A stretch of 45,289 nt of DNA, taken from the IMG/VR virus record IMGVR_UViG_2744054912_000003, positions 1-45,289 of that record; one strand, 5' to 3'. Origin of the DNA: a virus (Duplodnaviria; Heunggongvirae; Uroviricota; Caudoviricetes). Shown here piece after piece: positions 2,381-37,000 of the stretch. Every line of letters begins with the position of its first letter. Within the stretch, counting starts at the first letter, position 1. The position numbers were made by a program, and so were the translations under genes. The notes below the pieces were generated by a model. That model had not been told where the DNA came from, searched no databases, and saw only the letters and a list, made by a program, of their open reading frames with translations.

Positions 2381-2397
2381 AAATTTATTAGAGCAAA
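2381..2397 (-). promoter_or_regulatory. C1 repressor operator-like site upstream of kilA (Op53-like)
   Basis: Reverse complement TTTGCTCTAATAAATTT matches the P1 C1 operator consensus ATTGCTCTAATAAATTT (as I recall it) at 16 of 17 positions, about 70 bp upstream of the kilA start. Confidence 0.6.
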
Positions 2398-3880: not shown

Positions 3881-4048
3881 GGTTTACGGACACAAAAATA
3901 CCGCAATATCGGAAATCTGCGGTTGTCCGCGTAAGTATTCAGGCTGCTAAACCCGGTCGCAGAATTTGCTACGACGGCGAAACTATAAGCCTGAACGATT
4001 AAAAGGTCAATATGATGCAAAAAGATAGCATTCGCGACTTAAAAATAC

Positions 4049-4065
4049 AAATTTATTAGAGCAGA
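4049..4065 (-). promoter_or_regulatory. C1 operator-like site overlapping a sigma70-like promoter (Op51/P51-like) for the c4-icd-ant transcript
   Basis: Reverse complement TCTGCTCTAATAAATTT matches the operator consensus at 15 of 17; it is embedded in TTGCAC-N17-ATAAAT on the minus strand. Confidence 0.55.
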
Positions 4066-4346
4066 TTAGTGTCGTGCAATAGATATATTATTTGTGATGA
4101 AAAATAATGCAGATGGATATTGTAACTTTAAGATGGATATCAATAGTCGATACATAAATTAAGTTAGCAATAAACTATTAACTTAAGAAATAATGCAGAT
4201 GGTGAACTTGTCTCTGACTTTTCAGCTATACACAATAAGTTAGGGATAGCTTATAAAAAGTTGATTAATTGATATAAGTCAATGGGAGTATTCTTGTTTA
4301 CTTTCCGTTCTCGTGGTAACTTCTCGCCGGTTTTTGTTTTTCTGGG

Positions 4347-4868
4347 ATGATTCTTATGTCTAAAAAGTATACTTTATGCGCTCTTGTTGTATCTGCAATT
4401 CTTCTTTCTGGGTGTCAATCTAGCGGTGCTGATTATGCTGCCGATGTTTATGATACCGCTCAATTGAATTCGAAGCAGGAAACAAAGACAGTCAATATTA
4501 TCTCTGTGCTTCCAGCTAAAGTGAAAGTTGATAATAAAGCTAATAAAGAAGCGGCACAGACATTTGGTGCGGTACTGGGAGCTGTTGCTGGGGGCGTTGC
4601 CGGTTATAATGTTAAAGGCACATCGACACTGGGTGCTGTAGCTGGCGGTACTGGTGGTGCGGCTCTTGGTGCAGCGGCTGGTTCTTTGGTTAGTGATAAA
4701 ACAATTGTTGAAGGTGTTTCACTGACTTATAAAGAAGGAACTAAGGTGTTCACTTCAACTCAAGTTGGTAAAGCATGCCAGTTTACAACGGGGCTTGCTG
4801 TGCTTATTTCAACTAAAGATAATGAAACTCGAATTCAGCCAAATGCTACTTGTCCAGAAAAGAAATAA
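4347..4868 (+). CDS. Lipoprotein with glycine-zipper region
   Basis: Signal peptide with lipobox LLSGC; Gly/Ala-rich segment GAVLGAVAGGVAGY...GAVAGGTGGAALGAAAG typical of glycine-zipper outer-membrane lipoproteins. Confidence 0.7.
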   Translation: MILMSKKYTLCALVVSAILLSGCQSSGADYAADVYDTAQLNSKQETKTVNIISVLPAKVKVDNKANKEAAQTFGAVLGAVAGGVAGYNVKGTSTLGAVAGGTGGAALGAAAGSLVSDKTIVEGVSLTYKEGTKVFTSTQVGKACQFTTGLAVLISTKDNETRIQPNATCPEKK

Positions 4869-5450: not shown

Positions 5451-6058
<608 letters not shown>

Positions 6059-6068
6059 GAGGGCTGAT

Positions 6069-6680
6069 ATGGGGTTTAATGTTGCTTCAGTAAAGTCTTA
6101 TGTATCTTCGGCATTAACGACGACATTATTTGGCTCCGGCGTTGGTGAACGGGAAGTTGGTAAGCTGACGTCAATCATCATGAACAAAATGCTGTTCGCG
6201 CAAGGATGGCAGTTCTCTGTCGAAGTTGATGGACTGGAGGGGGCAGACTTCTTTGCCAAAGATATTACCTACCACGATTACAGCATCGAATATGAAACGA
6301 TTAAAATCGGCGGAGGGAATATCCTTCAACCAACGGAGCGTTCGCCTGGGCAGATAACAATGATGGTCAGGGATACCGTTGATGGCCTCGTTTTGGACTG
6401 GTTTAAGACGGCAAAAAGTCGGGTGATCAATCCGGACGGTACCGGGAATATACCGTCTAAATATTTGCTCAATGTGCGTATTTATCGGTTGCTGTCTTCC
6501 GGCTTAACCAAACTGGAAAATGAGATGACGGTATTCCCGGTCACTACCGGCGATGTCACCTATGCGCGAGATCAGGTTACTGAATTTAAGTCATTCCCAA
6601 TGACCTTCGCATTGCACAGCACGTTTAACCAATCCTCAAGTTCTTTGGCTTCCCTTCTGGGCTTTAGCTTTTCTCTTTGA
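6069..6680 (+). CDS. Putative tail tube protein (position of P1 tub)
   Basis: 203 aa, strong Shine-Dalgarno (GAGAGG), position in the operon. Confidence 0.5.
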   Translation: MGFNVASVKSYVSSALTTTLFGSGVGEREVGKLTSIIMNKMLFAQGWQFSVEVDGLEGADFFAKDITYHDYSIEYETIKIGGGNILQPTERSPGQITMMVRDTVDGLVLDWFKTAKSRVINPDGTGNIPSKYLLNVRIYRLLSSGLTKLENEMTVFPVTTGDVTYARDQVTEFKSFPMTFALHSTFNQSSSSLASLLGFSFSL

Positions 6681-6694
6681 ATTAAGGAGCAAGG

Positions 6695-7576
6695 ATGCTT
6701 TTACCTCTTTTCCCGCTACCATCGCGGCCAACTGAATTGATCCAGTTCCGTCAGCCAAATATTGCTGATGCGATGCGTTTCAACTCGATAACACCGGAGG
6801 AACAAGAACAACAGACAACGGCGTATTTAAAAGCCTTGCTGGCTGAACCCGCGAAACATGATCCCCTGACATGGACGGCGCAGGACCGGATTACCGCGTT
6901 ATGGTGGATATTTACCGGCTCCCGTGAAACACCGGTCGAGACATTCACCTACACCTGTAAACATTGCGGTAAAGAGCATTATTACGATTGCGATATGAAT
7001 GCTCTGGCTGAAGATATCCAGGTCCTGGAAGTGGAACCTTTCATTGACGATATTGAGGTGTCTGTAGAGGGAGTACCTTATCAATGGCGTATCGTGCCGC
7101 TTGATGGTTGGGCAATGGAAATGCTGGAGATGCGCCGTGCAGCATTGCCACCTGAAGACGACGCGGAATTCAAAGAAGCGATCGTTGATTTGCGTTTTTG
7201 GGAATTCGCTTATCAGTGTGAGCTTTATAACGATGTTAGCGGTACTCGTGAAGATCAGGCTGAGCGTCGTTATGAAACGATTAAACGGATGGCCATTGAT
7301 ACTGAATTTATGAAGCTGGCGGCACACATCCGACTGGCTCATGAAAAGCTCGAACATGGTTTACCGTGCTACATCGATAAAGGTGAAATGCGTCTTCGTC
7401 TCCCGCCGCATAAATGCCCAAATCAGGATAAAAAGGAGTCCACAGAGGGTGCATATACCCGTCTGTGGGTGCCCTTTCGGGCTACCGACTTCATTCCACA
7501 GGTGGGGATTGAAAAGCTATCAGACCTTAGTGTCCAACCTGGTTTTGTATGGGGGTATACCGATTCAGGACGCTGA
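6695..7576 (+). CDS. Tail/baseplate morphogenesis protein (position of P1 pmgB)
   Basis: 293 aa with a Cys-rich CxxC...CxC segment; Shine-Dalgarno AAGGAG. Confidence 0.5.
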   Translation: MLLPLFPLPSRPTELIQFRQPNIADAMRFNSITPEEQEQQTTAYLKALLAEPAKHDPLTWTAQDRITALWWIFTGSRETPVETFTYTCKHCGKEHYYDCDMNALAEDIQVLEVEPFIDDIEVSVEGVPYQWRIVPLDGWAMEMLEMRRAALPPEDDAEFKEAIVDLRFWEFAYQCELYNDVSGTREDQAERRYETIKRMAIDTEFMKLAAHIRLAHEKLEHGLPCYIDKGEMRLRLPPHKCPNQDKKESTEGAYTRLWVPFRATDFIPQVGIEKLSDLSVQPGFVWGYTDSGR

Positions 7577-24355: not shown

Positions 24356-27343
24356 ATGAGCTTAAGCGATCAGGTGGTAATGGCCACCAGCATAGAAACG
24401 CTGATCGAGCTGCTAAAAAACCTGCCCAATTACGGGCGGGTTTCGTATGTGGTGACAGCGAAGGGAGACGAGGTAAAAACAGCGTTTGATATCGTCGATG
24501 CCTCAGCTCTTTTGGTATCCAATACTCTGGACGGGAAAATTAACCCTGACTATCCCCAGGAACTTCAGCCGCGCGACCGGACCCGCGCATCCAGTCTTCT
24601 TCAGGTCAACCAGATATCCAAGGATTTGCGTCCTGCCCAGCTTACCGATTCCGGTTTATCCAGCCATGGCGCGCCGATAATTGGTGAGGACAATGCCGTT
24701 GAGTCAGGTAATGGACGGACCATGGGGATCATCAAAGCCTATCAGGACGGCAATGCGGATCGGTATCGTGAGTACCTGATTGATCATGCGACCGAATTCG
24801 GCATACGACCTGAAAAGGTTGAATCAATGGCGGCTCCGGTACTGGTGCGCCGCCGGTTAACTAAGGTTGACCGCGTTCAGTTTGCCAAGGACTCAAATAT
24901 TTCTGATCTTCAGGAAATGGCAGCCAGTGAAAAGGCTTTTGTTGATGCTGACAGCATAACTCCGGCGATGATGGCGCTGTTTAACCCATCAGAAAGCGGA
25001 GATCTGCTTAGCCGCAGTAATGACGCGTTTATTCGCGGATTCATGACGCAAGTTGGTGCCACACAGGCTGCTGGCCTTGTAACGGAAGATGGGCGACCAA
25101 CACGGCAACTTGTAGACCGTATACAAAACGCGATCTTTGCCAAGGCATATAAGGATGCGCGCCTGGTAAGGATGGTTGCAGAAGAAGCTGATCCGGATAT
25201 GCGTAATGTTCTGACGGCGCTTAATGCGGCAGCCAATGATTTTGTCCAGATGCAGGCTTTATCAGGAGAAGCGCACAAGCAGGCTGTGACAACTATTGTT
25301 GATGGCATTGAGACAGCGGATAGCCTCGATAAAAAGGCGCTGGCGGCATTGAAAGATGCGGTAGACCTGGTAAGGCAATCGAAGGAGTCAGGCCAACATA
25401 TTACCGATGTTATTGCTCAGGGGGATATGTTCAGCGAAACAGCCCCGGAAGTGAAAGCTCTCGCGTTGTTCATCGTCGCGAATAACCGTAGCGCGAAGCG
25501 TATGGCCACCGCTTTTAAATTGATGGCTCAACGTATCAATGATGAGTTACAGCACCAGGGCCAGGCGCTGGGGGATATGTTTGGCGGTGGTGATGTGTCG
25601 TTACAGGATATCCTTCGCCAGGTGTCTCAGGAACTGGAAAACGAAGGCATGCAAGGGATATCCGGCGGTCTTTTCGAGTCCGTTTCCGGCGGTAGTTACA
25701 ACGGTGTTGCTCCATATACCAGTTTGCTATTACATCGGGCATCCGGCATCAAAGACATTATTCATCTGATCAGGCTGCTTTCCCGTACAGATCCCCAGGA
25801 TGAACAGCTTGTACAAGTGCTTGCGCATTTTGTTCGAATGCCTGTTGCCGACGTGAAAAAATGGTGCCGATTATTCGGTATCAGCAATTCGTTACTTCGC
25901 GGCTTCTTAAATCACGCATCCTCCCTTGGGCGCGATGGCTTTGACGAGATAGCGCAGGCGATAAAAAACGGAGATATGCCACCAGCTATTGACTGGTTTT
26001 CCATTCGCCCAACCAGGGTGAAAGCATTCCTTAGCGCGGCGCATTCGGCATCACCATTGGCAGAAATGGTTCAGAGGTTGTCGCTCATATTCACAGACCA
26101 TACTGCGTTGGGTGATCTGACTCTGGACGAGATGAAAGAAGCCTCCATTCAGTGGGCCGATCAACAAAATGAGGTTAACTCAGACTTCTTGCCAGCATTC
26201 AGGAAGGCCGTTAGTAAAGCGGATGATGCCCGTGGAATTCTGAAGGCATTTAAGGCATTGCAAAGTCGGGTTAATAAACATGTCGGTGATATCGATGGGG
26301 TAACGGCGGAAGGCAGGGATATCCTTAAAGAGCACGGCATAACGCCAGAGTTTATTGATGAGATCAGGACGGATATGCAGCGTGAGGTCGTATCGTCCCT
26401 GCAAATTGTAGCCAGAGCGTTGGCGGATGCTAATCCGAAGAGTGCGGCCATTGTTAACCGGGTTATTGGTGATATTGAAGCATCGGAGGGCATGGGGGCG
26501 CTGAAACTCTTCCTTTCGCGAGCGTTTAATCCTAACGGCAATATTCTCCCTGGCATTATTGGTGAGGCTAAAAGGTATGTCAGTGAAGAAGAACTTGAGC
26601 AGCTTGACCAACTACTTAAGCGATTCTCATATAACCCGCAGACACGCTGGCAAATGAATCAGCGAAGTATGGGTTCGGTCCACGAGAAAGTGTTATCTGC
26701 CATGAACAGTGCGATCGCAAACTCATCCGTATCTGAAGAAAAAGCTCTTGAGTGGGCCGACTCTTTTATCACGGAAGAAGTGGAAGAAGCCCGCGCTGGA
26801 CAGAATGGTGGGATAGACCTGCGCAAGGAACTTGCTGATATTTATCGCCTGACCGGCGGTAAAATTTCGACCTTATCAAAGGTGGTTCACCACCAGGGAA
26901 GGGCATATGCAAATCTTAATGGTGTTGTTGCTGTCAATTTGAACGATGAAAATGCAAGTGCACTGTGGCACGAGCTGGGTCATCATCTTGAGTACAGTAA
27001 CCCTGGTTTGTTAGAGAAAGCCCGGTCATTCCTGAAGGCCAATGTTGAAGGGGATAAGCCATCTTTCGTTAATATCGGTGGGCGTGGCAAGCCTGAATGG
27101 TGCTTCAGATCTCGATTGAGTAATATTTATATGGCGAAGGTATACCCGCCAGCCTCAGTGAGTAACTCCGGGAAAATTCGGCAGAAAGCACCGACTATTT
27201 CAAAAACATCAGCAACGGAAGTATTCTCTATGGCTCTTCAGTTGTATCATGACAAAGAGGCCGCTGCCGCATCACTGATGAATGGTGACGGATTGCTGGA
27301 ACTGTTATTAGGTGTGGCAAAGGAGCTAAATAATGCAGATTAA
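24356..27343 (+). CDS. ddrB: DdrB-like large virion protein
   Basis: 995 aa (about 109 kDa) following ddrA. Confidence 0.5.
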   Translation: MSLSDQVVMATSIETLIELLKNLPNYGRVSYVVTAKGDEVKTAFDIVDASALLVSNTLDGKINPDYPQELQPRDRTRASSLLQVNQISKDLRPAQLTDSGLSSHGAPIIGEDNAVESGNGRTMGIIKAYQDGNADRYREYLIDHATEFGIRPEKVESMAAPVLVRRRLTKVDRVQFAKDSNISDLQEMAASEKAFVDADSITPAMMALFNPSESGDLLSRSNDAFIRGFMTQVGATQAAGLVTEDGRPTRQLVDRIQNAIFAKAYKDARLVRMVAEEADPDMRNVLTALNAAANDFVQMQALSGEAHKQAVTTIVDGIETADSLDKKALAALKDAVDLVRQSKESGQHITDVIAQGDMFSETAPEVKALALFIVANNRSAKRMATAFKLMAQRINDELQHQGQALGDMFGGGDVSLQDILRQVSQELENEGMQGISGGLFESVSGGSYNGVAPYTSLLLHRASGIKDIIHLIRLLSRTDPQDEQLVQVLAHFVRMPVADVKKWCRLFGISNSLLRGFLNHASSLGRDGFDEIAQAIKNGDMPPAIDWFSIRPTRVKAFLSAAHSASPLAEMVQRLSLIFTDHTALGDLTLDEMKEASIQWADQQNEVNSDFLPAFRKAVSKADDARGILKAFKALQSRVNKHVGDIDGVTAEGRDILKEHGITPEFIDEIRTDMQREVVSSLQIVARALADANPKSAAIVNRVIGDIEASEGMGALKLFLSRAFNPNGNILPGIIGEAKRYVSEEELEQLDQLLKRFSYNPQTRWQMNQRSMGSVHEKVLSAMNSAIANSSVSEEKALEWADSFITEEVEEARAGQNGGIDLRKELADIYRLTGGKISTLSKVVHHQGRAYANLNGVVAVNLNDENASALWHELGHHLEYSNPGLLEKARSFLKANVEGDKPSFVNIGGRGKPEWCFRSRLSNIYMAKVYPPASVSNSGKIRQKAPTISKTSATEVFSMALQLYHDKEAAAASLMNGDGLLELLLGVAKELNNAD

Positions 27344-27638
27344 AATCGCAGCGCCATTAGGCGGAGATGCCATTATCGAATTTGATGATAATGAAGAAGT
27401 TTCCGGGCGTTTAAGCATTATCTCCGGTGACATTACCGAGGACATGATCGCTGAAGCCATAGCTGGGGCAAATCCCAATAGCTATATGGGATTCGTTAAC
27501 ACCCTTGATGCTCCCGCAAGTGATGTTCTCCGAACGCTGCATCTTTACGCTGGCTGGTTTGTCGATTGGCCAGCAGTAGAGGGTGGCGATGAGGACGACG
27601 ATGATTTTGGGGATCATGTAGACCAGATCGTATATTAA
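27333..27638 (+). CDS. Small acidic protein (101 aa) ending the operon
   Basis: AAGGAG ribosome-binding site; very acidic C-terminus (EGGDEDDDDFGDHVDQIVY). Confidence 0.55.
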   Translation: MQIKIAAPLGGDAIIEFDDNEEVSGRLSIISGDITEDMIAEAIAGANPNSYMGFVNTLDAPASDVLRTLHLYAGWFVDWPAVEGGDEDDDDFGDHVDQIVY

Positions 27639-28250
27639 CTCCCTGATAGTGCACAAATAATCTGTTCTGATATGTTAATTGTGTACTTAAAGTAAACGCG
27701 TAGTGGCTTGCTTTAGGTTATGGAAGCAAGCTATTGCCTAATATGTTAGATCAAAAAATTTTAATTTTTGCGTTTCGCTCACCACATATTGAACACTTTA
27801 GCCGATCTTTTAATTCTTCCAGAGTCAATCCTGAAGCTACATATTGTTTAATATCTCTTCGTCATTGCATATTCAGAGGGTAAAGATATACACATACTAA
27901 AATGAACTGGCTTAGCTCGTTATTAATCAGAATTCGATGAGACTACTCCATTTTAGGGAATAACATGTATAACTAAAACACATCGTCTTTAACTCTCACA
28001 ATATAGATTCAGTTTAATACCCAATCGACAGTAATTAATTTGACTCTACTTTTTAAGTAGATTTCAAATCCACATCCATTAAAACCCTATTAATTAACAG
28101 GCTATCTATTTTTGCAGTTATTATTTTTGTGCTAATTTAATTGTTTGTCTTTTGTGCTTATTGTTGATTGTGTTTTGTTCTATTTTGTCAATTTTTATTC
28201 TGTGAATTGAGATTTTTCTAATAGTCCATTGGGTTTTCAAGGTTATTATT

Positions 28251-28266
28251 TGTGATTTTGATCACA
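28251..28266. promoter_or_regulatory. Consensus CRP-type site TGTGA-N6-TCACA upstream of the porin gene
   Basis: TGTGATTTTGATCACA, perfect half-sites, about 110 bp upstream of the porin ATG in an AT-rich leader. Confidence 0.45.
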
Positions 28267-28377
28267 AAAATACCTTGATTTTTATTTGCAAAACTTGAAA
28301 CACGAATCCAAAAAAGATAAACATTTGTCCGCAGTGACCTCTTTTCTACTGAAAAGTTCAATCTAAAGGGCAAAAAA

Positions 28378-29490
28378 ATGAAAAAAATCACAGTGGCACT
28401 TTCTGCGGTTGCAGCATCAGTCCTGATGGCAATGTCTGCACAAGCGGCAGAAATCTATAACAAAGACGGTAACAAACTGGATCTGTACGGCAAAGTTAAT
28501 GCAGAGCATTACTTCTCTTCTTCAGCTAGTGATGACGGGGATAAAACTTATGCTCGTATGGGTTTCAAAGGTGAAACTCAGATTAATGACCAGTTAACCG
28601 GTTTTGGTCAGTGGGAGTACGAATTTAAAGGTAACCGTACTGAAACTGAAGGTTCTGATAAAGACAAAACTCGTCTTGCGTTTGCAGGGCTTCGCTTTGG
28701 CGATTATGGTTCGCTCGACTATGGTCGCAACTACGGTGTAGCGTATGATGTTGGCGCTTGGACTGACGTGCTGCCGGAGTTTGGTGGAGATACCTGGACT
28801 CAGACTGATGTATTTATGACCCAGCGTGCTACTGGCGTCGCGACCTATCGTAACAATGATTTCTTCGGCTTGGTTGATGGTCTGAACTTTGCTTTGCAGT
28901 ATCAGGGTAAAAATGATAGTGCTGCAAAAGTGAACAACTGGAAAGGCCGCGACGTAGTTGAATCTAATGGTGATGGCTTCGGTCTGTCAGCTACTTATGA
29001 TTATGAAGGATTTGGCATTGGCGCAACTTATGCAAAATCTGACCGTACTGATGGACAGGTATCCTATGCTAATGCAAGCTCTCTGAATGCTTCTGGTAAA
29101 ACAGCTGAAGTATGGGCTACTGGTCTGAAATATGACGCAAACAACATTTACCTGGCTGCAACTTATTCTGAAACTCAGAATATGACAGTCTTCGGTGATG
29201 ACTTTATCGCAAACAAAGCGAAAAACTTTGAAGCTGTTGCTCAATACCAGTTTGATTTCGGCCTGCGTCCGTCCATCGCTTACCTGCACTCTCGCGGTGA
29301 AAATATTGGTGCGTTCGGTAACCAGGATCTAGTTGAATACATCGACGTAGGCGCGACTTATTACTTCAACAAAAATATGTCCGCTTTCGTTGACTACAAG
29401 ATCAACCTGATTGATGAAAGTGAATTTACCAAAGCATCTGAGGTTGCAACCGACAACATCGTTGCTGTTGGTATGACCTACCAATTCTAA
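28378..29490 (+). CDS. OmpC/NmpC(OmpD)-family general porin
   Basis: 370 aa; signal peptide ending [19 protein letters not shown]; C-terminal ...VAVGMTYQF with terminal Phe; closely resembles E. coli NmpC as remembered. Confidence 0.9.
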
Positions 29491-29565
29491 TTTTGGTAGG
29501 TAAGAATATGCGGGAAGGGAGTGATGTCACTGCCCGCATATAGGTGGCACCCTCATGCCACCTTT

Positions 29566-29590
29566 GAAGAGGCAATAAAATTGCCTCTTC
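29566..29590 (+). terminator. Hairpin downstream of the porin gene
   Basis: GAAGAGGCA-ATAAAAT-TGCCTCTTC. Confidence 0.45.
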
Positions 29591-29645
29591 TCAATTTAAC
29601 TTCATGTTATTTATTACCCTTTTATTAATTTGAAACTCTATTGTT

Positions 29646-29672
29646 GGGGCGCTTTGTTGCGCCCATTTTTTT
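29646..29672 (+). terminator. Rho-independent terminator
   Basis: GGGCGC-TTTGTT-GCGCCC followed by ATTTTTTTT. Confidence 0.7.
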
Positions 29673-29723
29673 ACACCAATTAGGTAAAGTTATTTTTAAG
29701 TAATCGAGCAACTTTCAGCCCTC

Positions 29724-30212
29724 TCAAAATGGAATATCGTCTTCAAAGTCCATTGGAGGTTCGTTATTGGCGTTGCTCTGAGGTTTACCGCCGCCACTGT
29801 ATTGCTGGTGGTTTTGAGGTTGGTTTGATTGCCCCCAGCCATTTGAGGACTGTGAATCGTCGCGGCGAGTGCCGATCATTTGCATGGTGCCGCCCTGGCT
29901 GACGATAATTTCCGTCGTGTAACGTTCTACACCGGCGTCATCAGTCCACTTACGGGTTTTAAGTTTCCCTTCGATGTAGACCTGAGAACCTTTTCGTAAA
30001 TACTCACTCGCAATTTCAGCAAGTTTTCCGAACAAAACGACTTTATGCCATTCTGTTTGCTCTTTCTGTTGGCCCGTTTGCTTATCGCGCCATGATTCAT
30101 TCGTTGCGATGCTGAGTCTTCCGACTGCGCCGCCATTTGGTATATACCTGATCTCCGGGTCTTGCCCCAGGGTACCAATCAGGATGACTTTGTTTACACC
30201 GCGTTGTGCCAC
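29724..30212 (-). CDS. ssb: Single-stranded DNA-binding protein
   Basis: [30 protein letters not shown]...[31 protein letters not shown]...[11 protein letters not shown]: OB-fold core and acidic DDIPF tail diagnostic of bacterial SSB; GTG start. Confidence 0.9.
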
Positions 30213-30231
30213 TTTTCTTACCTAATAAAAT

Positions 30232-30248
30232 AAATTAATTAGAGCAAT
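30232..30248 (-). promoter_or_regulatory. C1 operator-like site between the divergent ssb and lyz genes
   Basis: Reverse complement ATTGCTCTAATTAATTT matches the operator consensus at 16 of 17. Confidence 0.5.
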
Positions 30249-30381
30249 AATGTATATCTTTGAAACGTGGCTAACAAGTGATTTGCATTATCCTGTGCCT
30301 TCTAAAGGGATCGAGTCAGTCGGTATTGGCTGTGAATGAGTGTTTGTCCTGGAGCGTAAAAAATTCGCTTATGAGGTCTTT

Positions 30382-34027: not shown

Positions 34028-37000
34028 ATGAACAAGCTATCTATGGGTGTGTTTCGCTGTTCAAGTGTCAGCGAAATATTGAAATACATTAGGGCAATAA
34101 CATCTCACCGAGCGCCGATTAAATACGGCGTGGAAAAGGTGGAAGGCAAAAGCTATGACCGACTGCGCCGGGAGGCGAATCAGAAGGCGATAGATTTGCT
34201 TAATTCGCTGGTGGACGGCGCGACACTGACAGATGAACAGCGCCAGATCCTGGCCGGGTACACTGGTGAAGGCGGCATTGGCGGGTCCGTCTCCGAATAT
34301 TACACACCAAAGCCTATCGCTGAAGGTGTCTGGGAGATCATGAAGCTCTACGGCGCGGACGTAGGTAACACTCTGGAACCATCGGCGGGAACCGGCGTTT
34401 TTAATGAGACAAAACCGGTTGGTACGGTGATGACCGCGACTGAGATCAGCAGTGTTTCCGGTCGTATAAACCAGTTGTTACACCCGGAAGACAGCGTACA
34501 GATTTCCCCGTTCGAACAGCTGGCTATAAACACGCCTAACGATTCATTCGACCATGTTGTGGGTAACGTTCCGTTCGGCGGTCGTGATAACACACGCAAC
34601 ATCGATAAGCCTTACGCAGAAGAAACGGACATGGGGTCTTACTTCATGCTCCGCATGCTGGACAAGATAAAACCTGGCGGATTCATGTGTGTGATTGTGC
34701 CGCCGTCCATTGTTTCAGGTTCAAACATGAAGCGGTTACGCCTGCGCTTATCCCGTAAAGCTGAATTTCTTGGCGCTCACCGCTTGCCTACCGGTACTTT
34801 TGACGCAAACGGGACCAGTACAGTCGTTGATGTGGTGCTGATGCGCAAACATCCGGCAGAGATGGCTGAGAAAATCCCCCTGGTGGATGAAAGCACTCTC
34901 GAATCGGCAAATGTGCTTTGGCCAACGTTTATTTCTGGCAAGTGGTTTGAAAAGGACGGCCGCCGGTTTGTTCATGGCACCCAGGAAAAGGGCTTCCAGG
35001 GGCGTATTGAGGTTCGTGCCGACGGTCAGATTGATAACCAGGCTCTTAAAGCGAAGCTGATTCATCGTTTCGAAAGCCGTATCGACTGGTCTTTGCTCGA
35101 TATGGCTGAACCGTCACCGACCGCAGACGTTGTTGGTGAAGGGGAAATGCGCCTGATTAATGGCGTATGGCAAAAATATGCTGGTGGTCGCTGGATTGAA
35201 GCTGATGCCGGGAAGGAACTTAAGATCGATGCTGCCAGTTATGGCGCGGATAGCTGGGAGGCTCTTCAGCGTAACCTGACTACAACAGAAGGCCGTCTCG
35301 GCATGACATTTACCCAGATGGCAAATGTCCGCGATAAGTACACCACATCAATCAGCGACGATATGGTGCAGCTGGTGGACTGGATTAACAGCCAGCCTGA
35401 AAAATACCGTGAACGCTTGTATCGCGGGGCGATGATTGGCCGGATGTTAATTGAATATCAGGACATGAAGGCCGCCGGGCATAGTGCTGAACAAATCGAA
35501 CAGCAGCGCCTTTCTCTGGTATCCCGTTTGCAGGCAGAGATTGACCGTTTTGGTAACCCCGGTCGCGGTCCGATAGCGAAATTGTCGGGGAGCGGTGCGC
35601 GCGCCTGGTTTGCTTTCCGTGGTGCGATTAAGCTGGATGGCACTATTTCTGACGAGCTGACAGGAAAGCTGGTTACGCATGATTCCAGCGCCAGTTATGA
35701 CTCCACCAGCTATCAGGACACCCTGCGTTATCTCTATAGCGATCTTACCCGCGATCCAATCCAGCTCGATGATTTCCGCTTTGCGTTTACCGGCGAACTG
35801 CCAGCCAGTGATGAAGAGTTGCTTAATTTATTGGCCAGCACCCCTGGTATTGCGGTTTCACCGTATGGCGGGATTGTTCCGTTCGCCCGCGCCACCAGCG
35901 GCGACATTAACGAGATAGTGGCTCCAAAACAGGAATTTCTTGCCACACTCCCCGACGGTCCAGTAAAGAACAACGTCCTTAATCAGCTGGCAGCGATCGA
36001 AGAGAAGCGCATCAAGACGTCAGCAGAGAATATTCGCTTTAAGCTCAATAGCCGTTGGTTCGACCGCTCCGTCATTCTGGAATTTTTGCAGGAAAACGGC
36101 TATCCGGATCTGCGCTATGTGCAGTCAGTGCAGCTGGAAGGCGACGAAATGGTTTCTGACACCTATCACGGTGGTGATGGTCTGTTCGTCGGGCACCGAT
36201 ACGGTGTCGTCCAGCGCAAGGATAAAGAAACAGGCGAGATCCGCTACGAGTGGGACCGTAAATCGGGTGAAAACGCGACCGGGTTCCCGGCACAGCTGGA
36301 AAAGTATCTCAATGGTGCGCGTATCGGTGGCAAAGATAGCGCGACGGCGAACGGCTACCGCGAGCAGATGGCACTGCTTGAGGACCAGTTCAATAAGTGG
36401 ATCAAGACGCACGATCGCTACGATGAGCTGGTTGCCAAATACAACGATGTGTTCAATAGCAATATCCCGTATGAACACTCTGGCGATCCGCTTGGGTTGA
36501 AGGGATTAAGCGGTAAGCGCCAGCCATTTGATTACCAGAATAGCGAGGTGCGCCGACTGTCCGAAGATGGGCGCGGCATCCTGGGCTTCGGCACCGGGCT
36601 GGGTAAAACCACGACCGCGCTGGCGCTTGAGGCGTTCAACTATGAGAACGGTCGCTCTACCCGTACTGCGTATGTAGTGCCTAAATCAGTGCTGGAAAAT
36701 TGGTATTACGAAGCAAAAGAATTCCTGAGTGAAGAGGCATTCAGTAACTACTTGTTCGTCGGTCTTGATGTGCTGATGGATGGCGATCAGATTCGCCAGG
36801 TGCCGGTGCTCAATGAGAACGGTAAACCTGTTCTTGGTACTGATGGCACTCCAGTTATGCGCGATGCTCTTAAGCTGGCAGATGAAGCCACTATCACGGC
36901 GCGGATGAACGCGATCCCGCACTCAAACTACCGTGCAGTCGTGTTTACCAAAGAACAATACGCCCGCATTCCGCTACGTGATGACACCGTAGATGAGCAT

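Follow-up and report, generated by a model that had tools for sequence, protein, structure and literature searches.

The phage-borne porins Lc and NmpC have been known since the 1970s–80s. They are encoded by self-contained cassettes of lambdoid prophages, Lc in phage PA-2 and NmpC in the DLP12 (qsr') prophage of E. coli K-12; both genes are located between Q and the lysis genes and are oriented against late transcription. In E. coli NCM3722 intact NmpC accounts for about 2% of the proteome and is induced by carbon limitation. Its level is reciprocal to that of OmpC: in EQ353, an MG1655 derivative with an interrupted nmpC, OmpC is raised more than 10-fold (PMC8144880). In addition, nmpC is a reported target of RybB (PMC3333887). 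Within the P1 family, phage P7 (AF503408) carries a gene annotated as nmpC with a signal peptide, and this "P7 porin precursor gene nmpC" was placed in P1 variable region RD-2 (isaA-IS1-isaB) by Venturini 2019 (PMC6906374). Published work treats the slot between hxr and ssb, also called variable region 2, as one of the variable, GC-poor regions of P1-like phage-plasmids (PMC6906374, PMC9603915).

We analysed a stretch of 45,289 bases from a P1-family plasmid prophage (the window). An intact OmpC/NmpC-family porin had been predicted between the darA operon and ssb, at the place where P1 carries IS1. All three parts of this prediction held: an intact porin gene without internal stops lies between hxr/odaA and ssb, the same two genes enclose isaB-IS1-isaA in P1, and the target site of the P1 IS1 is present in the window in uninterrupted form. 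The features of the locus are as follows.

27333–27638, plus strand: hxr (P1 name) or odaA (P7 name), a 101-aa ORF annotated hxr in P1 and odaA in P7; last gene of the darA operon and left flank of the variable region.

27700–27737, plus strand: 15-bp stem-loop (fold z = −5.1) that corresponds to the annotated P1 terminator closing the darA operon (AJ000741).

27754–27861, minus strand: isaB remnant, last 36 codons only (tblastn with P1 IsaB residues 166–201: 86% identity, E = 9e-18); P1 DNA homology stops at 27859.

27862–27893, no strand: empty P1 IS1 target site TCATTGCATATTCAGAGGGTAAAGATATACAC; P1 reads TCATTGCATATTCAGAGGGCA, then IS1, then CAGAGGGCAAAGAATTACAC, with a 9-bp duplication.

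27894–28190, no strand: AT-rich spacer of 297 bp with 28.6% GC, confined to P1-family elements that bear the porin (92% identity in pEC17CM13_2).

28191–28377, plus strand: conserved promoter and 5'UTR, 187 bp, 95.5% identical from 28191 onwards to the chromosomal cassette of E. coli Rb-50.

28251–28266, no strand: consensus CRP core TGTGATTTTGATCACA, a perfect TGTGA-N6-TCACA centred 119 nt before the ATG, at a conserved position.

28295–28323, plus strand: candidate sigma-70 promoter, inferred from TTGAAA, 17 nt and TAAACA (a weak −10); CTTGAAA and GAT-AA are invariant in the cassette alignment.

28378–29490, plus strand: porin gene (nmpC in P7), 370 aa including a 23-aa signal peptide (28378–28446), assigned from the ORF, family profiles and the P7 annotation.

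28391–28397, plus strand: CAGTGGC, matching the RybB 5' seed over 7 nt at +14 to +20, positioned as in K-12 nmpC and invariant in the cassette alignment.

29506–29590, plus strand: three conserved stem-loops directly past the stop codon (29506–29541, 29543–29562 and 29566–29590; MFE z = −6.3).

29593–29626, plus strand: conserved unpaired stretch AATTTAACTTCATGTTATTTATTACCCTTTTATT, seen in the cassette alignments; a diverged copy lies beside IS1 in P1.

29647–29672, plus strand: canonical intrinsic terminator from the terminator scan, GGGCGC-N6-GCGCCC (29647–29664) with a U-run to 29672.

29724–30212, minus strand: ssb ORF, right flank; P1 homology restarts exactly at its stop codon.

The closest described system is P7 itself. 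Across 27300–30300 the window and P7 are 98.4% identical, and the odaA/hxr-ssb locus, the orientation, the leader and the terminators agree (98.4–98.7% identity in DNA, 98.1% in protein for AAQ07495). Judged by sequence, the two are the same gene, and the stretch is the already annotated nmpC porin gene of P7-like phage-plasmids rather than a new one; the finding is real but ordinary for that reason. The window locus is 100% identical in several E. coli plasmids, for example NZ_MW646302 and NZ_CP122822. In PLSDB, 103 plasmids match the 3-kb query over 80% or more of its length, and a porin at least 95% identical is found in about 111 plasmids. The cassette occurs in about 103 of the 511 matching P1-like plasmids (about 20%), so that it is not ordinary P1 backbone shared by all relatives, and the remaining 80% or so, including P1 itself, are without the porin. 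Several carriers have the gene broken by IS10/ISVsa5, IS3 or IS1. Given this and the many plasmids that lack it, the porin is dispensable and sometimes counter-selected.

The protein matched Pfam Porin_1 (PF00267) end to end, with 494.6 bits for residues 29–370 on positions 1–337 of the 337-position profile. It scored above the cutoff of the NCBIfam OmpC subfamily NF007841 (531.7 bits, cutoff 484) and below the equivalog cutoffs of both PhoE (NF007544; 494.8 against 599) and OmpF (NF007446; 451.1 against 583), and is therefore neither PhoE nor OmpF. The label "PhoE" in some plasmid records is ruled out by the NF007544 score. The 23-residue signal peptide, annotated in P7 as a 69-nt sig_peptide, is followed by the mature start AEIYNK, where AE(I/V)YNKDGNK is expected, and mature PDB chains align from residue 24. 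The constriction-loop L3 motif PEFGGD (P133–D138) is invariant in the porin alignment, as is the C-terminal Y368-Q369-F370 (...TYQF) with its aromatic last residue. Residues 24–370 matched solved OmpC/Omp36 structures with E = 1e-135, and we infer a trimeric 16-strand beta-barrel channel from this full-length similarity to OmpC, Omp36 and OmpK36.

Alignment of the protein with NmpC, OmpD and OmpN, as the original prediction had suggested, placed it in the NmpC/Lc clade, with 81% identity to K-12 NmpC, 79% to Lc, 72–74% to OmpD-like porins and 61% to both OmpC and OmpN. Against Lc and NmpC, synonymous sites are saturated (dS 1.4–2.2) and the insert in loop L4 differs (16 residues in the window, RSDFDNYTEG in Lc/NmpC). 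From P7 NmpC the window porin differs by 7 amino acids and a 1-residue indel, concentrated in a short loop segment at residues 232–235. The dN/dS ratio was 0.06–0.17 overall and 0.08–0.17 among P1-family alleles, in which dS reaches 0.25. By its profile matches and substitution pattern, the gene product is thus a predicted intact general-diffusion porin of the OmpC subfamily, NmpC/Lc clade, under strong purifying selection.

Salmonella OmpD and chromosomal porins of Citrobacter and Enterobacter belong to the same porin sub-branch. ompD is CRP-dependent, as is proposed for the window porin gene, but it is a chromosomal core gene with a different signal peptide (MKLKLVAVAV...), its best CRP-like site lies at −150 and not at −119, and it has no structured 3' tail. 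It is repressed by the small RNAs RybB, MicC, InvR and SdsR (PMC3333887).

The region upstream of the porin had been described as about 740 bp of very AT-rich leader. The AT-richness is correct: the leader (27639–28377) is 739 bp long with 30.7% GC, compared with 48.6% for the whole window, and the lowest GC content of any 297-nt segment of the window, 25.6%, lies inside it at 28031. It is not, however, a single unit. The first part, 27639–27861, is homologous to P1 and holds the darA-operon terminator and the isaB remnant; it is followed by the empty IS1 site, the AT-rich spacer and the promoter/5'UTR region. In the P1 record AJ000741 the terminator is annotated 30–103 nt past the hxr stop codon, and it is predicted to insulate the porin from upstream late transcription. 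The spacer has no counterpart in chromosomal or lambdoid porin cassettes. A search for the origin of 27860–28190 covered P1, SJ46, the chromosomal cassettes and lambdoid phages and gave a single match, the 32-nt IS1 target site. The promoter/5'UTR region is about 80% identical to the A5 and TST3 islands, from 28192 and 28218 respectively, while lambdoid lc and nmpC align from 28315, that is, with a homologous 5'UTR from 63 nt before the ATG. No family matches were obtained for the small leader ORFs at 27734–27883 (plus strand) and 28218–28391 (minus strand).

The perfect CRP site claimed in the leader is present and is the sole perfect TGTGA-N6-TCACA on either strand of the 45,289 bases. Shuffling gave an expectation of 0.03 perfect cores, with one found in 3 of 100 shuffles. 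A CRP-type core lies at −117 to −119 from the ATG in all seven NmpC/Lc cassettes compared (the window, PA-2, K-12 nmpC, Rb-50, A5, TST3 and E. albertii), at −118/−119 in lc and nmpC, and the GenBank record of PA-2 lc (J02580) annotates a CRP site at the equivalent spot. The core has two mismatches in both lc and nmpC, whereas it is perfect in the window.

The candidate hexamers at 28295–28300 and 28318–28323 would place the CRP centre near −71, and class I geometry calls for a centre near −61.5, −71.5 or −82.5 from the transcription start. The consensus promoter scan of the leader called no plus-strand promoters, the candidate included; with a −10 that is weak and uncalled, the geometry is a guess. 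Phage signals were also sought. No P1 C1 operator was found in the leader, the nearest being Op-ssb at 30232–30248, and no late-promoter box was found in 27600–28400. With terminators on both sides, a distinct composition, presence or absence among close relatives and neither C1 operator nor late box, the cassette is an nmpC-type porin moron, a self-contained gene of host type that occupies RD-2, the known P1-family variable region between hxr and ssb.

The extreme AT-richness upstream of the porin is compatible with H-NS repression, and the cassette could be largely silent cargo, its leader coated by H-NS, with little or specially derepressed expression and a small phenotype in most hosts. 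In line with this, no other part of the window is as AT-rich as the leader, most P1-like elements lack the gene, IS elements have struck it repeatedly, and quiescent nmpC and ompN have been cited for E. coli B (PMC3333887). We nevertheless consider silent cargo unlikely. The dN/dS and dS values of the plasmid alleles point to continued selection at the protein level, cassettes with synonymously saturated coding regions still share the CRP site and the promoter-proximal 187 bp, and the clustering of differences at loop residues 232–235 is what is expected of an exposed, expressed protein. Moreover, intact NmpC, the nearest homologue to have been studied, is among the most abundant proteins in carbon limitation (PMC8144880).

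Possible base pairing of the 5' region with RybB and MicC was examined, and duplex energies as good were reached by 5–12% of shuffles; for RybB the value was 8–12%, so that the duplex energy is insignificant alone. Only the position of the RybB seed match was kept, as weak evidence.

Downstream of the gene, two terminators had been predicted. One of them, the canonical intrinsic terminator, was found, and all cassettes share it, although its register shifts; in place of the second there are the three stem-loops, which are strong but without good U-tracts. A covariance model of the 3' flank (R1) matched NmpC/Lc-clade cassettes only, with 37–125 bits, and gave no match to ompD. Homologous stem-loops, conserved tail and terminator follow lc and nmpC. 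Pairing was evaluated with a hand-given structure, covariance-model alignment and pair counts: 95.3% of the cells are paired, with compensatory changes in 10 of 31 pairs. This evaluation replaced an RNAalifold run on a MAFFT alignment, in which two helices were out of register and the structure was poor. GcvB (Rfam RF00022) was considered for 29486–29672 and rejected; the score was 30.4 bits against a gathering threshold of 42, the G/U-rich R1 seed of GcvB is absent, 43 model positions around it being replaced by 14 nt, and direct alignment of the flank with K-12 GcvB showed no convincing homology.

As a speculative and somewhat doubtful proposal, we suggest that the flank of about 180 nt, with its stem-loops, AU-rich unpaired stretch and terminator, may form a functional RNA module accompanying NmpC/Lc cassettes, the last part of which P1 keeps as an orphan relic beside IS1. 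It could act as an Hfq-type sRNA derived from the 3'UTR, or it could insulate transcription in both directions. A literature search for an RNA from the nmpC 3'UTR found nothing. If this reading is true, P1 descends from a porin-carrying ancestor.

The relic also bears on the history of the locus. P1 retains about 75 nt of the 3' tail of the porin cassette, terminator included, and the best match of this P1 segment in the whole window is the cassette tail at 29593–29626 (score 43; shuffles 20.7 ± 2.6, none of 500 reaching it). The plasmid pEC17CM13_2 has an intermediate form, with isaB, the porin and an isaA remnant. Because of the relic and this intermediate, the cassette looks ancestral in the P1 family; P1 would have deleted the leader, the porin and the stem-loops and then gained IS1, and isaA and the greater part of isaB appear to have disappeared from the lineage of P7 and the window. 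The P1 RD-2 region is thus the same genomic slot as in the window, differing in its full isaB, IS1 and isaA and in a porin cassette reduced to the tail relic. The original prediction of horizontally acquired DNA probably has the wrong polarity within the P1 family, where the evidence favours an ancestral cassette lost by P1. The new details are the empty P1 IS1 target site with the truncated isaB, the tail relic in P1, and the covarying 3' stem-loops with their conserved tail.

Deletions vary by lineage: P1 lacks the porin, the window lacks the 5' part of isaB and isaA, and SJ46 lacks isaB and the porin. Together with the IS insertions, these lineage-specific losses (P1, window, SJ46) might suggest a decaying remnant that is leaving the P1 family, functionless now and held by linkage alone. 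This is very improbable, as about 111 plasmids retain an intact ORF under strong purifying selection and the regulatory elements are conserved.

An nmpC-type moron encoding a CRP-activated, host-transcribed porin, ancestral in the P1 family, is in our view the probable explanation of the locus as a whole. In the plasmid prophage state, host sigma-70 RNA polymerase would transcribe the porin from the weak candidate promoter, and cAMP-CRP would activate it with class I geometry at about −71; the porin would in consequence be made under carbon limitation. The precursor would be exported by Sec and inserted by Bam, becoming a major outer-membrane channel at the cost of OmpC and OmpF. Altered permeability to solutes and antibiotics and altered display of receptors for phages, colicins and contact-dependent inhibition (CDI) would then follow, and the mRNA would probably still be under RybB (sigma-E) repression, as is nmpC. 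Sensitivity to antibiotics and phages could change accordingly. We found no functional study of P7 nmpC or of porin expression in a P1 or P7 lysogen in a literature search.

The same displacement of OmpC and OmpF allows another explanation, in which defence and not nutrition has been selected: the lysogen would be protected by removal of the receptors for rival porin-dependent phages, colicins and CDI toxins. Lc of phage PA-2 was classically proposed, in the literature of the 1970s–80s, to exclude OmpC-dependent phage. The nearest relatives of the window porin are borne by lambdoid phages, where their place between Q and the lysis genes is fixed, near-identical alleles vary mainly in one short loop, and the abundances of NmpC and OmpC are reciprocal (PMC8144880). 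On the other hand, CRP control suits nutrient scavenging at least equally well. The logic of self-exclusion is also absent for P1 and P7, since these phages adsorb to the LPS core. We regard selection for defence as possible, though we do not favour it, and the two roles are compatible rather than mutually exclusive.

A phage-borne porin is not new in kind, and this one is annotated in P7. P1-like phage-plasmids, which are studied for the resistance genes they carry, occur commonly in E. coli from animals and humans, and about one in five of them would add a second-tier major porin with a predicted CRP-type control site. Expression of the porin on the pattern of NmpC would mean that lysogeny remodels the outer membrane. 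Such remodelling could alter beta-lactam entry, the receptors for phages and colicins, and growth on scarce carbon, which would be relevant to phage therapy and to the reading of porin-loss resistance.

A 370-aa porin gene lies between the darA operon, whose last gene is called hxr in P1 and odaA in P7, and ssb. The locus is laid out as follows.

27333-27638, hxr/odaA, left neighbour of the porin locus
27639-27861, P1 backbone part of the leader, with a terminator stem-loop and the isaB end
within 27639-27861, minus strand, isaB remnant, last 36 codons
27700-27737, stem-loop, annotated as a terminator in the P1 darA-operon record
27862-27893, uninterrupted IS1 target site of P1
27894-28190, AT-rich piece (28.6% GC), only in porin-bearing P1-family elements
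28191-28377, conserved promoter and 5'UTR, common to related cassettes
28378-29490, porin ORF, 370 aa
between the porin stop and the canonical terminator, three strong stem-loops
29647-29672, canonical terminator
29724-30212, minus strand, ssb, right neighbour of the porin locus

The ORF matched Pfam Porin_1 from end to end (494.6 bits) and scored 531.7 with the NCBIfam OmpC-subfamily model, above its cutoff of 484, and the PhoE and OmpF equivalog cutoffs of NCBIfam were not reached. Solved chains of OmpC, Omp36 and OmpK36 aligned to residues 24-370 (E about 1e-135). An intact OmpC/NmpC-family porin, as had been predicted here, is thus present. The protein is 98.1% identical to P7 NmpC, 97.8% to a chromosomal copy in E. 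coli Rb-50, 79-82% to K-12 NmpC, PA-2 Lc and the copies on E. coli genomic islands, 72-74% to OmpD-like porins of Salmonella arizonae, Citrobacter and Enterobacter, and 61% to K-12 OmpC and OmpN. As the identities were highest to P7 NmpC, NmpC and Lc, we place the porin, by sequence, in the phage-associated NmpC/Lc clade.

The cassette is real and the original prediction interprets it essentially correctly; it is a gene with an existing annotation and a published name. P7 (AF503408) is 98.4% identical to window 27300-30300, and its record names the same ORF, between odaA and ssb, nmpC, 'outer membrane porin precursor', with a signal peptide. The segment is found at 100% identity on several E. 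coli plasmids, at least 80% of the 3-kb segment is present in 103 of the 511 PLSDB records matching the flanks, and about 111 plasmids encode a porin at least 95% identical. Among RefSeq complete E. coli genomes, the 5' region (27860-28400) was located 103 times on plasmids and 52 times on chromosomes. Venturini et al. (2019, PMC6906374) listed isaA-IS1-isaB as the region of difference RD-2 and described pSvP1 as carrying 'P7 nmpC interrupted by IS10'; pSvP1 (plasmid hit H24) has the same sequence as the window except for IS10. In the JL22 paper (PMC9603915) this slot appears as low-GC variable region 2. A literature search for a functional study of this gene in a P1 or P7 lysogen found none. 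The porin or its leader is separately broken by IS10/ISVsa5, IS3 and IS1 in P1-like plasmids H24, H26, H35, H58 and H81, and in plasmid H34 IS100 lies inside the 3-kb region with the porin gene still annotated. Such insertions hint at counter-selection or at an IS hotspot.

The very AT-rich leader, predicted at about 740 bp, measures 739 bp with 30.7% GC (window, 48.6%) and holds the 297-nt stretch with the lowest GC content in the 45 kb. The only other 297-nt windows below 30% GC lie at about 3970-4380 and about 42280-42600. The leader is composite. P1 reads ...CAGAGGGCA / IS1 / CAGAGGGCA..., whereas the window has CAGAGGGCA once, so that the statement that the cassette sits where P1 carries IS1 is literally true, the empty target site being at 27862-27893. 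The last part of the leader, 28191-28377, has 95.5% identity to the chromosomal cassette of Rb-50 and about 80% to the cassettes of two islands; in lambdoid lc and nmpC, likeness to the window begins at 28315. No C1 operator was found closer to the leader than Op-ssb, a C1-operator-like site at 30232, and a search of the leader for the P1 late-promoter box found none. Four C1-operator-like sites with 1-3 mismatches occur in the window (2381-2397, 4049-4065, 30232-30248 and 34082-34098; 0.26 expected).

Directly right of IS1, P1 itself (NC_005856, 3924-4005) carries a diverged copy of the cassette tail and terminator (window 29593-29672). The best match of this P1 segment in the whole window was 29593-29626, with a score of 43 (shuffles, 20.7 +/- 2.6; 0/500). 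Such a relic points to a porin-carrying ancestor of P1. Plasmid pEC17CM13_2 (NZ_CP190335.1, 2174-5029) starts with the whole isaB region, 96.5% identical to P1, as far as the IS1 site, which is empty; the AT-rich spacer, the porin and the tail follow at 92% identity to the window, and an 87-nt isaA remnant and then ssb come last. It is an intermediate RD-2 form, and the simplest reading of the ancestral order would be hxr, isaB, porin cassette, isaA, ssb. P1 would then have lost 27894 to about 29601 and later gained IS1, and the P7/window lineage would have shed 607 bp of isaB together with the whole of isaA. Alternatively, different RD-2 forms may have recombined.

The Rb-50 copy (6001-7522 of its locus) is 95.5% identical to window 28191-29714. 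This copy continues into the flank next to ssb that the P7-type junction also has, and it stops 30 nt from an ISEc16, which suggests transfer of the cassette between phage-plasmid and chromosome. The cassettes on the A5 and TST3 islands of E. coli, both flanked by IS elements, are mosaics: the promoter region resembles that of the P7 type, at about 80% identity from 28192/28218 onwards and with the CRP core perfect, and the coding sequence lies near that of Lc (dS 0.16-0.22, vs 1.4-1.6 to the window).

The prediction of two terminators after the porin is approximate: there is one canonical terminator, preceded by the three stem-loops and then a conserved unpaired stretch. A covariance model of the stem-loops matched only NmpC/Lc cassettes among 53 sources, with no match in OmpD-like and OmpC-like chromosomal porin genes. 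Aligned with the help of the model, the sequences have 95.3% of their cells paired, and compensatory changes, spanning P7-type, island-type and lambdoid cassettes, occur in 10 of 31 pairs (slid controls, 0-1), counts that come from only about three independent lineages and an alignment fitted to the model. Window 29491-29672 is a conserved structured element; candidate roles are those of a 3'UTR sRNA, of stabilising the mRNA and of insulating in both directions. In lambdoid phages Q and the porin stop enclose this flank, so that its opposite strand is the leader of the late promoter; the antisense of stem-loop 1, followed there by CTTTTTC, may serve as tR'. The Rfam model of GcvB gave a sub-threshold score at 29486-29672 (30.4 bits vs 42, E about 1e-4), owing to a similar hairpin/terminator layout and an ACUUC-UGU..CCCU stretch resembling GcvB R2, and was judged not homologous.

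Across all comparisons, alleles of different P1-like plasmids included, dN/dS was 0.06-0.17 (window vs JL22: dS 0.25, dN 0.019), so that the protein is under purifying selection. P7-type alleles vary in 19 alignment columns, of which five, comprising four substitutions and one indel, fall at residues 232-235 (29071-29082; NAS-S / KAPLN / KKD-P / KDS-P), alleles being 96-98% identical elsewhere. Diversifying pressure on an exposed loop probably explains this hypervariable patch.

The predicted CRP site, TGTGATTTTGATCACA at 28251-28266, is the sole perfect TGTGA-N6-TCACA in the window (0.03 expected from shuffles). Each of the seven NmpC/Lc-clade cassettes examined has a CRP core 117-119 nt ahead of its ATG. 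The window, A5 and TST3 match the consensus fully, and PA-2, K-12, Rb-50 and E. albertii each deviate from it at two positions; the PA-2 lc GenBank record (1986) annotates a CRP binding site at exactly the corresponding place. In Rb-50 (TTTGATTATGATCACG, about 6061-6076) the left half is TTGAT, the FNR half-site. Regulatory input may differ between cassette alleles. Conserved hexamers TTGAAA (28295) and TAAACA (28318) were not called as a pair by a consensus promoter scan; as a candidate promoter they would put CRP near -71, in class I geometry. nmpC has been reported as a RybB target (PMC3333887), and every cassette has a 7-nt match to the RybB seed, CAGUGGC, at +14; taken alone, the duplex energy was not significant.

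The mechanism proposed for the porin is argued from homology to Lc and NmpC. H-NS silencing of the cassette and effects on antibiotic and phage sensitivity are hypothetical. In E. coli NCM3722 intact prophage NmpC makes up about 2% of the proteome and is induced by carbon limitation, complementary to OmpC (Mori et al. 2021, PMC8144880); in the MG1655 derivative EQ353, where nmpC is interrupted, OmpC is >10-fold higher (PMC8144880). These findings are the strongest evidence available for the mechanism proposed and for an influence of the porin on receptor display.
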